Below, piece by piece: positions 4,855 through 53,277 of a stretch of 64,000 nt of DNA (position 1 is its first letter; each line of letters starts with the position of its first letter). The notes beneath the pieces were generated by a model. That model worked only from the letters and a program-made list of their open reading frames with translations, was not told the origin of the DNA and searched no databases. Made by a program: the position numbers and the translations under genes. Source of the stretch: Octopus vulgaris (lineage: Eukaryota); assembly GCA_951406725.2 (NCBI GenBank), contig OX597837.1, forward strand, positions 3,844,001 to 3,908,000. Reading direction: 5' to 3'.

Positions 4855-4998
4855 CGCCGAGGTCGACTTTGCCTATCATCCTTTCGGGGTCGATAAATTA
4901 AGTATCAGTTATGCACTGGGGTCGATGTAATCGACTTAATCCGTTTGTCTGTCCTTGTTTGTCCCCTCTGTTTAGCCCCCTGTGTGCAATAAATAAAT
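4855..4998 (+). mobile_element. SINE A, 5'-truncated, following (CTA)n
   Basis: Matches the core and internal unit of the 4-407 copy. Confidence 0.85.
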
Positions 4999-5061: not shown

Positions 5062-5425
5062 CTCACCTTCCTCTTCAAATGAAATTTGAAGAAACTGAGG
5101 ACTTGACCAGATAGGAATGTGGATGTCTTCAAACCTTTCAGACGGGTCCGCCACACAGCCTCTTCTGCCACAGCCACAAAGCAGAGAGAGTGATCTGCTT
5201 TCCTTCTCTGCTAAGGAAAAGTGGTGCGTCGAACTTCACTGTACACTGGGCTGACAGCTGAATTCGTCTTACATGCAACAACAGCTGCTGCTGCACACAA
5301 TTTCTAATGTATGAATTATTGCATGCTGGACGATATCGTTCCAGTGCAAGCACCCCGGGGAGGTTCGGCTGTTGACACTTCCATGCTCGAAGAATTTGTC
5401 TCGAACGGGCAACCCTCTTTAGCGT
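5062..5425 (-). pseudogene. Tx1/L1-clade LINE ORF2 C-terminal fragment (frameshifted)
   Basis: Minus-strand translation across frames gives LPVRDKFFEHG..IVQHAIIH..VAVAEEAVWRTRLKG..FFKFHLKRKVR, resembling the zf-RVT region and C-terminus of Tx1-type ORF2. Confidence 0.6.
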
Positions 5426-14084: not shown

Positions 14085-14662
14085 GGCGGTGAGCTGGCAG
14101 AAACATTAGCACGCCGGGCGAAATGTTTAGCCGTATTTCGTCCGCCGCTACGTTCTGAGTTCAAATTCCGCCAAGGTCGACTTTGTCTTTCATCCTTTCG
14201 GGACCGATTACATAAGTACCAGTTACGCACTGGGATCGATGTAATCGACTTAATCCGTTTGTCTGTCCTTGTTTGTCCTCTCTGTGTTTAGCCCCTTGTG
14301 GGTAGTAAATAAATAGGTATTTCGTCTGTCTTCGTGTTTTGAGTTCAAATTCCGCCGAGGTCGACTTTGTCTTTCATCCTTTCGGGACCGATTACATAAG
14401 TACCAGTTACGCACTGGGGTTGATGTAATCGACTTAATCCGTTTGTCTGTCCTTGTTTGTCCTCCCTGCGTTTAGCCCCTTGTGGGTAGTAAATAAATAG
14501 GTATTTCGTCTGTCTTCGTGTTTTGAGTTCAAATTCCGCTGCGGTCGACTTAGCCTTTCATCCTTTTCGGGTTCGATAAAATTAAGTACCAGTTATGTAC
14601 TGGGGTCTGTCCTTGTTTGTCCCTTCTATGTTTAGCCCCTTGTGGGCAATATAGAAATAAGA
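14085..14662 (+). mobile_element. SINE A with 3 tandem ~184-bp internal units
   Basis: gtatttcgtc recurs near 14132, 14317 and 14501. Confidence 0.9.
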
Positions 14663-22291: not shown

Positions 22292-22960
22292 GGCGGCGCG
22301 CCGGCAGAAAGGTTAGCACGCCGGACGAAATGCTTAACGGTATTCCGTCTGCCGCTACGTTCTGAGTTCAAATTCTGCCGAGGTCGACTTTGTCTTTCAT
22401 CCTTTCGGGGTCGATTAAATAAGTACCAGTTACACACTGGGTTCGATATAATCGACTTAATCCGTTTCTCTGTCCTTGTTTGTCCCCTCTCTGTGTAGCC
22501 CCTTGTGGGTAGTAAAGAAATAGGTATTTCGTCTTGCGCTACGTTCTCAGTTCAAGTTCCGCCGAGGTCGTCTTTGCCTTTCATCCTTTCGTGGTCGTTT
22601 AAATAAGTACCAGTTACGCACTGGGTTCGATATAATAGATTTAATCCGTTTGTCTGTCCTTGTTTGTCCTCTCTGCGTTTAGCCCCTTGTGGGTAGTAAA
22701 GAAATAAGGAAACGCTAGCACGGCGGGTGAAATGCTTAGTGGTATTTCGTCTGCTGCTACGTTCTGAGTTCAAATTCTGCCGAGGTCGACTTTGCCTTTC
22801 ATCCTTTCGTGGTCGATTAAATAAGTACCAGTTACGCACTGGGATCGATATAATCGACTTAATCCGTTTCTCTGTCGTTGTTTCTCCCCTCAGTGAGTAG
22901 CCCTTGCGGTTAGTAAAGAAATAGGTATTTCTTCTGTCTGCATGTTCTGACTTCAAATTA
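22292..22960 (+). mobile_element. SINE A multimer
   Basis: Three internal units plus the start of a fourth, with a second head piece near 22710. Confidence 0.9.
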
Positions 22961-34182: not shown

Positions 34183-34240
<58 letters not shown>

Positions 34241-34244
<4 letters not shown>

Positions 34245-34892
34245 GAAATATTAAAATTACTAAGTCTCTCTAAAAGAGAACAGCGGCAGCGTTCCCGGAA
34301 AATAATAGTTATCGCCATACTAATATGGCATTCTTATAAAAATAAGAATAAAGCTGTCCGTAGCTGCCGGTCAAGTAGTGTGGAGCGACTGACCTCCCTT
34401 GTTCGAAGGTTATATGGATACAGTTTGTGTATCAAATAGCTAACTTAAGGCGATGGCCTCATGGAGCTAATAAGCGGACAGCTTTATTCTTATTTTTATA
34501 AGAATGCCATATTAGTATGGCGATAACTATTATATTCCGGGAACGCTGCCGCTGTTCTCTTTTAGAGAGACTTAGTAATTTTAATATTTCTATTATTGAA
34601 AACAAGTGGATGTATTCCATCGAAACTAGGTAAATAAAACCATCGAACAGAGATTGTCGGAAGCGACACCTACTGGCTGGCTACGCTGCATTGAAAAGGG
34701 GCAATACCCCGAAACGCGTCTGTAGCTGCCGGTCAAGTAGTGTGGAGCGACTGACCTCCCTTGTTCGAAGGTTATATGGATACAGTTTGTGTATCAAATA
34801 GCTAACTTAAGGCGATGGCCTCATGGAGCTAATAAGCGGACAGCTTTATTCTTATTTTTATAAGAATGCCATATTAGTATGGCGATAACTAT

Positions 34893-34898
<6 letters not shown>
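34241..34898 (+). mobile_element. Young non-autonomous PLE/retrozyme-like element: inverted arm + ~1.5 tandem copies of a 362-bp unit
   Basis: 34241-34360 is the reverse complement of 34475-34594; 34360-34536 is repeated at 34722-34898; (TA)n on both sides; internal HHR. Confidence 0.85.
34685..34726 (+). ncRNA. Type I hammerhead, U3-A8 core variant
   Basis: gctgca TTGAAAA gggg-caata-cccc GAAA cgcg TC tgtagc; palindromic stem III acgcgt; predicted cleavage after 34720. Confidence 0.8.
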
Positions 34899-34941
<43 letters not shown>

Positions 34942-52599: not shown

Positions 52600-53277
52600 A
52601 AGACTACTCTATCGACATTTTTCAGCCATCTTGGAAACATCTGAACCACTTGTACACTTGTGTGCGGCTCATACACTCCTCTCCACACACTTTCTGCAAC
52701 TTTGCGTAGCTCTCTGAGCAGACATCACCATGACAACTTTTTTCTGTCATGGTCAATGTGAATAACACACGCAACAACCTTCCTTCCAAGCACTGCTGTA
52801 AACAGCGGAAGTGACCTAGAACGTTAAATCTTATTCCTATTTCTTTACTACCCACAAGGGGTTAAACACAGAGAGGACAAACAAGGACAGACAAACGGAT
52901 TAAGTCGATTATATCGACCCCAGAGCGTAACTGGTATTTAATTTATCGACCCCGAAAGGATGAACGGCAAAGTCGACCTCGGCGGAATTTGAACTTAGAA
53001 CGTAACGACAGACGAAATACCTATTTCTTTATTACCCACAAGGGGCTAAACACAGAGGGGACAAACAAGGACAGACAAACGGATTAAGTCGATTATATCG
53101 ACCCCAGAGCGTAACTGGTACTTAATTTATCGACCCCGAAAGGATGGACGGCAAAGTCGACCTCGGCGGAATCTTATTCCGTATGCACAGCAGAGTTTAA
53201 GATCAGTCCGTGCCAGGCGGTTTCACTCTGCTTCGTTACTATGGCAACAAACCGGATACTCATTGATCTGACTTCGT
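52600..53277 (-). mobile_element. Mariner 5' fragment interrupted by SINE A
   Basis: Mos1-like HTH remnant SESYAKLQKVCGEECMSRTQVYKWFRCFQDG; TIR-like end ..gatctgacttcg|ta. Confidence 0.7.
52838..53169 (-). mobile_element. Headless and tailless SINE A internal-unit dimer with 11-bp TSD
   Basis: aatcttattcc at 52827-52837 and 53170-53180; unit period 184. Confidence 0.88.

Follow-up and report, generated by a model that had tools for sequence, protein, structure and literature searches.

Two-armed insertions of a young hammerhead-bearing retrozyme family in Octopus vulgaris and a LINE that inserts within it

An insert in a 64,000-nt stretch of Octopus vulgaris DNA (the window; assembly GCA_951406725.2, contig OX597837.1, positions 3,844,001 to 3,908,000) is one member of a non-coding family that is young, numbers about 1,000 insertions and, as judged from sequence, is a metazoan non-LTR retrozyme. 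The insertions commonly display two head-to-head arms with fixed outer ends, and the family was probably written in this form, into (TA)n, by a Penelope-like enzyme that used circular monomer RNA as its template. The retrozyme serves in turn as the target of a LINE. The feature for which the window copy was originally flagged, a 5′ end at its own ribozyme cleavage site, is a minor class.

The window copy comprises ~660 bases, with 1.5 direct units and a 122-bp inverted arm, flanked by a (TA)n target microsatellite on the left (34207-34238) and on the right (34899-34938). With unit base 1 set at window position 34721, the first base past the predicted cut, and a unit length of 362 nt, the insert starts with (TA)n, continues with an inverted stretch from unit 238 to 117, then with unit 2-362 and unit 1-178, and closes with (TA)n. 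The inverted arm (34239-34360, minus strand), which bears the long, tailed outer end (L), aligns with 34475-34596 with a single mismatch in 122 bp. By repeat alignment, one full unit, spanning unit base 2 through base 1 of the following unit (34360-34721, plus strand), is followed by a partial unit, 2-178 (34722-34898, plus strand), that ends at the short outer end (S). The 63-nt “tail” (34534-34596, plus strand) separates the two ends, both marked by CTATTAT, the short one at unit 175 and the long one at unit 238. Comparison of the direct repeats 34360-34536 and 34722-34898, spaced by 362, gave 0 mismatches in 177 positions, and the longest stop-free frame of the unit is 55 aa, with no ORF for a reverse transcriptase (RT) or a GIY-YIG nuclease. 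The first-pass annotation, which had described 362-bp direct repeats without differences, a ~120-bp inverted arm inside (TA)n and no ORF, was therefore accurate in its account of the structure. The sole mismatch between the arms (34301/34534) lies at unit base 176, where the direct copy has A and the inverted arm the family’s T. Elsewhere in the window, three arrays (14152-14607, 22339-22706 and 52836-53172), built in tandem from a related 184-bp unit, are probably a SINE-like repeat.

A type I hammerhead with an extended helix I was modelled at 34650-34758 on the plus strand, with a predicted cut after 34720. The core TTGAAAA, with a U3-A8 pair, occupies 34691-34697 and is followed by a 4-bp stem II (34698-34710), GAAA, and the palindromic stem III ACGCGT (34714-34719), C17 being at 34720. 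The motif thus presents the 3-8 pair, the GAAA and the UH cleavage triplet of a type I hammerhead, in the U3-A8 form. The predicted fold of the 91-nt hammerhead region has a z-score of -4.1 and that of the circular 362-nt unit a z-score of -7.9, in which helix I pairs positions 1-57 with 276-332. Throughout the genome the core pattern yielded 1,278 matches, against 29 for a reversed control. In an alignment of only 4 related rows from subfamilies A, B and C, two-sided changes were observed in 5 of the 20 named pairs and in none of the slid controls; they include a switch from G-C to A-U in the basal pair of stem II, and ACGCGT to ACATGT, which preserves the palindrome of the dimer. Helix III persists solely as that dimer palindrome, and subfamily B lacks one of the helix I pairs. 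No Rfam hammerhead model matched the window hammerhead, either at the gathering score or at E values up to 10. Conservation of the core within subfamily A was not significantly higher than elsewhere (9/1426 vs 436/44300, p 0.22), and purifying selection on the core within that subfamily was not retained as a claim. The sequence comparison across the three subfamilies, in which the helices are kept, nonetheless predicts a conserved variant type I hammerhead in the 362-nt unit, as originally noted for its U3-A8 core and palindromic stem III. U3-A8 cores are already in print for Schistosoma elements, and the accessible text of that report (PMC4209133) describes U3-A8 core covariation in the minimal hammerheads of Cercyon, from which the octopus motif differs by its canonical size, 4-bp helix II, long helix I and occurrence in tandem non-coding units.

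The family was surveyed in the 2.8-Gb assembly. An internal 26-mer of the unit has 2,358 exact matches, the first 100 of which fall in 44 insertions, leading to the estimate of about 1,000 insertions. A total of 146 distinct loci were parsed, consisting of the 40 best BLAST matches, 43 + 31 position-ordered loci and 32 loci chosen for cut-site ends; over 143 loci, divergence from the majority has a median of 0.8%, in agreement with the earlier suggestion of a recently mobile retrozyme. The 362-nt units, each with a type I hammerhead, are arranged in tandem up to 9.9 units, displaying the organization of few-hundred-bp repeats by which retrozymes are recognised, and in most copies the flanks are (TA)n. 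Subfamily B (e.g. L226:6437-6990; L250-L279) has a 360-nt unit, about 81% identical, with 1,862 candidates; its two outer ends are the same as those of subfamily A, and its LINE target site differs. Subfamily C is represented at L290, L294, L295 and L302. Among public sequencing runs, which supplied contigs only, none of RNA was listed as carrying the repeat; a 392-nt contig in run X16 closes a 362-nt cycle, a result that tandem DNA yields equally. A further hammerhead-like motif, with a canonical core (CTGATGA...GAAA CCGG TC), was observed at L212, on the minus strand near position 4900 of the locus as reversed. In the accessible portions of the published descriptions (PMC7229834; bioRxiv 10.64898/2026.07.22.740005), metazoan non-LTR retrozymes likewise comprise a non-coding tandem unit, in mussels of 350-390 nt, with one type I hammerhead per unit, a weak palindromic helix III and a compact predicted circle, and they co-exist with Penelope-like elements. 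In contrast with those retrozymes, which display a C3-G8 core, the octopus family has U3-A8 and is found mostly as short, two-armed inverted (TA)n insertions with two fixed outer ends, an arrangement for which no description was found in these portions of the two papers.

Head-to-head two-armed insertions account for 101 of the 146 distinct loci. Each outer end is either S, near unit 175, or L, near unit 238, with CTATTAT preceding both, and 91 of the 93 distinct two-arm insertions in which both ends are classifiable present one S and one L end (92/94 in the raw tallies, where one locus is counted twice; p 4.5e-25). Of the two exceptions, L155 has an eroded end and L174 is an artefact of parsing; in 8 more loci an end is eroded. 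The insertions thus combine a head-to-head inverted copy, a one-sided tail and a microsatellite target, the pattern of Penelope-type insertion. While the outer ends are fixed and the insertions dispersed, the inner ends of the arms are scattered. Overlaps of at least 2 nt at the junction between arms, measured as BLAST overlaps and judged against an exact-match null, were found in 56/87 cases, against 16% by chance. Folding back of a single cDNA was rejected as the general route, as 32 of 83 simple two-arm insertions are incompatible with it. Inserts foreign to the family were seen between the arms at L095 (136 nt), L096 (250 nt) and L122 (44 nt).

Both arms and all tandem units of an insertion share one sequence variant. 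At six common variant sites, comparisons between arms gave 455 same and 3 different, those within arms 1079 and 21, and those between loci 28690 and 14305. Variants private to a locus occur in one unit only in 148 cases, in some units in 6 and in all units in 10, which counts against the copying scheme favoured below. Together with the insertions that cannot be fold-backs and the junction overlaps, the single variant per insertion fits two primings, at S and at L, on one template. Segments that cross at least two cut sites number 72 of 260, with up to 10 crossings, and indels show no excess at unit junctions (4 in 2,117 nt, compared with 254 in 107,675 elsewhere), both of which argue against jumps between linear monomers. 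The simplest option is a circle, which is likely to have been the template; a monomer or circle had been proposed for the window copy, and a monomer circle is plausible, although the uniformity of variants also fits an uncleaved multimeric transcript of a homogeneous array. At L243 the variants differ between the two arms, and a truncated LINE directly abuts an inverted arm of the retrozyme; not every template was therefore a plain 362-nt circle. At L238, unit 301-174 from a different variant comes after the LINE and replaces 318-335 of the host array. As for uncleaved RNA in related systems, it is the main substrate in vitro of the Anolis element PAc (PMC11167929, accessible text), and cleavage failed in 8 of 9 retrozyme dimers from Xenopus (bioRxiv 10.64898/2026.07.22.740005, accessible text).

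[quoted passage not shown] The copy does begin at unit base 2 (34360), but this G is common to the inverted arm and the head-to-head junction (34356-34360, plus strand, GTCCG) has 4 of its 5 bases in common with GTCTG, the sequence at the cut site; the start is thus resolved only to unit 360-3. This 4/5 microhomology of its own also explains the junction, on the letters alone. Self-cleavage as the origin of the template 5′ end is weakened by the about 94% of strands that pass the cut site. Among the strands carrying unit 5-24 in the position-ordered samples, 6 of 102 stop at unit 360-4 (7 with L168, whose end was assigned to its other arm), the expectation for 8 nt being 2.0% (p=0.016 for the count of 6); ends do accumulate at the cut, at about 3x background, although this concerns few strands. 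A sample drawn with an internal motif had 0/76 arm ends at unit 360-4 and 13/76 at 38-48. The strong cut-site pile-up seen in the first 40 loci (5/70 main-arm ends) came from a biased sample, as their query began at the cut, and was dropped in favour of the position-ordered samples. Genome-wide end patterns, which demand two non-family letters upstream and capture only part of the ends, gave 37 matches at 360-4 among 1,068 core matches (34 after 3 indels were removed by eye), 51 at unit 6-12 (about 48 real), 142 at unit 39-45 (not all checked) and 21 at unit 350-357 (about 16 real). Stops cluster along the 3′ strand of the ribozyme with no peak at the cut; unit 38-48 (34396-34406 and 34758-34768 in the window, plus strand), near the base of the extended helix I, is the strongest 5′ stop region of the family and a stronger stop than the cut site.

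On the reading that we consider probable, multimeric transcripts would self-cleave, probably in dimeric form by way of the palindromic stem III, and the resulting monomers would be ligated into circles. A Penelope-type endonuclease would open both (TA)n strands, and each strand would prime on one shared template, the first at S and the second at L. The two cDNAs would then roll round the circle, often stalling at the long helix I of the ribozyme, until their 3′ ends were joined via microhomology. The about 6% of stops at the cut site may represent run-off from a linear or re-opened template, the window copy perhaps being one such case. An inverted 5′ copy, a one-sided tail and (TA)n targets are hallmarks of Penelope elements (PMC8557442, PMC3846280), whose tail has been explained by two internal RT starts (PMC11167929). 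As far as the accessible text of these papers goes, endonuclease-bearing (EN+) Penelope-like elements resemble the octopus family in the head-to-head inverted 5′-truncated copy, the tail at one end, the (TA)n targets, the microhomology junctions and the two internal start sites. They differ from it in that the family has no RT/GIY-YIG ORF, consists of many tandem units and has a tail of 63 nt rather than 30-40 nt, present strictly once per two-armed insertion where theirs is “optional”.

A young, intact RT+GIY-YIG element resides in the same genome (L206-L224), also in (TA)n. It encodes a 765-aa protein with RT, GIY-YIG and a CxxC linker, and an upstream 347-aa ORF that has no Pfam match. Its two-armed copies display one long and one short end in 3/3 cases, with the two 3′ ends about 33 nt apart (the tail), compared with 63 nt in the retrozyme. 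This element was rejected as a proven partner, having no sequence in common with the unit and a shorter tail, and a crude scan of its copies (L206-L224) found no hammerhead common to them. No autonomous element with unit sequence was found in 52 Penelope-type loci, mostly of one family, 150 of 6,136 GIY-YIG candidates having been scored.

Double priming of the Penelope type could also have taken place on an uncleaved multimeric or read-through array transcript, the ribozyme being slow or acting at another stage. Such a template would suit the about 94% of strands that read through the cut site, and both the LINE-containing arm at L243 and the foreign 301-174 segment at L238 point to longer templates; in PAc, hammerhead mutants leave insertion unaffected (PMC11167929, accessible text). 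It would, however, demand that many conserved ribozymes stay uncut in arms of up to 10 units. Variant sets fixed through whole arrays (e.g. L108, L083 and L045) and helices that covary across subfamilies also argue against it, as does the accumulation of comparable retrozymes as circles (PMC7229834, accessible text), and we regard this route as unlikely while giving it real weight.

The proposal from which the analysis started, a linear template with a self-cleaved 5′ end from which copies typically start at the cut, fares considerably worse and appears very improbable. The ends at unit 360-4, at about three times background and genome-wide at 34 against about 16 just upstream, are what it would expect. 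However, stops at 38-48 and at 6-12 are equally common or commoner, the window junction has its own microhomology, and the scarless passage of about 94% of strands through the cut refutes self-cleaved linear templates as a general rule. Growth of the arrays at the DNA level, by unequal crossover and fold-back repair from monomeric Penelope terminal-repeat remnants, is hardly credible: local tandem amplification has been proposed for retrozymes (accessible text of bioRxiv 10.64898/2026.07.22.740005) and one duplication of a whole insertion was found (L068), but young dispersed insertions with fixed outer and scattered inner ends, together with the 32/83 that cannot be fold-backs, are not what it would produce.

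The end search also revealed the LINE. The 21 genome-wide matches at unit 301-307 comprise 6 indels, 6 true ends and 9 LINE junctions, these nine apparent ends at unit 301 having one common upstream sequence. The LINE is 5,358 bp long and intact (e.g. L244:982-6339). ORF1 contains a CCHC zinc knuckle, the intact 1,132-aa ORF2 comprises an APE endonuclease, RT and zf-RVT, and the 3′ end lacks a poly(A) tail. Exact matches to a 28-mer close to the 3′ end number 19, spread over 14 loci (L238-L247, L280-L306), and in 19/19 of them the LINE 3′ end adjoins unit 301/302. The target is a 17-bp site (unit 301-317) lying 16 nt upstream of the ribozyme core; it is empty in the window copy (34659-34675, plus strand), and full-length LINE copies duplicate it. 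Fourteen copies begin at base 1 after the duplication and 5 are 5′-truncated, including one with an exact duplication (L301). Five copies are arranged in tandem on C2, with spacings of 5,373-5,374 or 5,735 bases, mostly parted by the 17 bp alone.

The hosts of the LINE include several subfamily A variants and subfamily C. A single LINE insertion hitch-hiking on the retrozyme was rejected as the sole origin, because the host variants are not alike, the subgroups of the LINE fail to follow them and L301 has its own duplication; some composite LINE/retrozyme copying is likely at L243 and L238. Named homologues, Ciona pol-like Q76IK4 and Chlorella O64428, are only 25-27% identical. From its sequence the LINE classifies as a target-specific element of L1/Tx1 type, displaying the target specificity by which Tx1 families are recognised in the accessible part of PMC4494074. 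The Tx1-clade LINEs described there (Tx1, Keno and Tx1-Mar) similarly occupy a fixed site in a multicopy element, with a duplication of about 16-17 bp and tandem copies sandwiching it. In contrast with those elements, the octopus LINE has as its target a retrozyme that carries a ribozyme, and the site lies 16 nt upstream of the ribozyme’s catalytic core. A three-tier system is a tentative possibility, somewhat short of an even chance: a dimeric Penelope-type enzyme would prime both target strands at two sites of the retrozyme circle, the LINE would breed only inside the retrozyme, and, since the 17-bp duplication rebuilds the downstream ribozyme, host hammerheads could cut out the LINE RNA. 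An RNA so excised would end in target sequence, with no poly(A), and would be usable for priming.

Retrozymes, their proposed link to Penelope and U3-A8 cores are already in print. By title or abstract, none of the papers listed on hammerhead ribozymes and octopus deals with this family, and one octopus repeat annotation leaves ribozymes unmentioned in its main text. The literature consulted likewise contained no paper joining a retrozyme with Tx1 or describing a LINE that targets a hammerhead repeat; Repbase or Dfam may hold the repeat or the LINE. The copying of retrozymes, and the inverted arms and one-sided tails of Penelope elements, are stated open questions in the accessible text of PMC8557442, PMC11167929 and bioRxiv 10.64898/2026.07.22.740005. 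The value of the octopus family lies in its family-wide record of two-site priming, which can be counted and comes with a 362-nt substrate bearing two predicted start sites, and in the LINE that targets it, more than in the single-copy feature first flagged. Through this LINE, a new kind of target joins the known ones (small RNA genes, microsatellites and DNA transposons), and the element may use the ribozyme of its host to form the ends of its own RNA.
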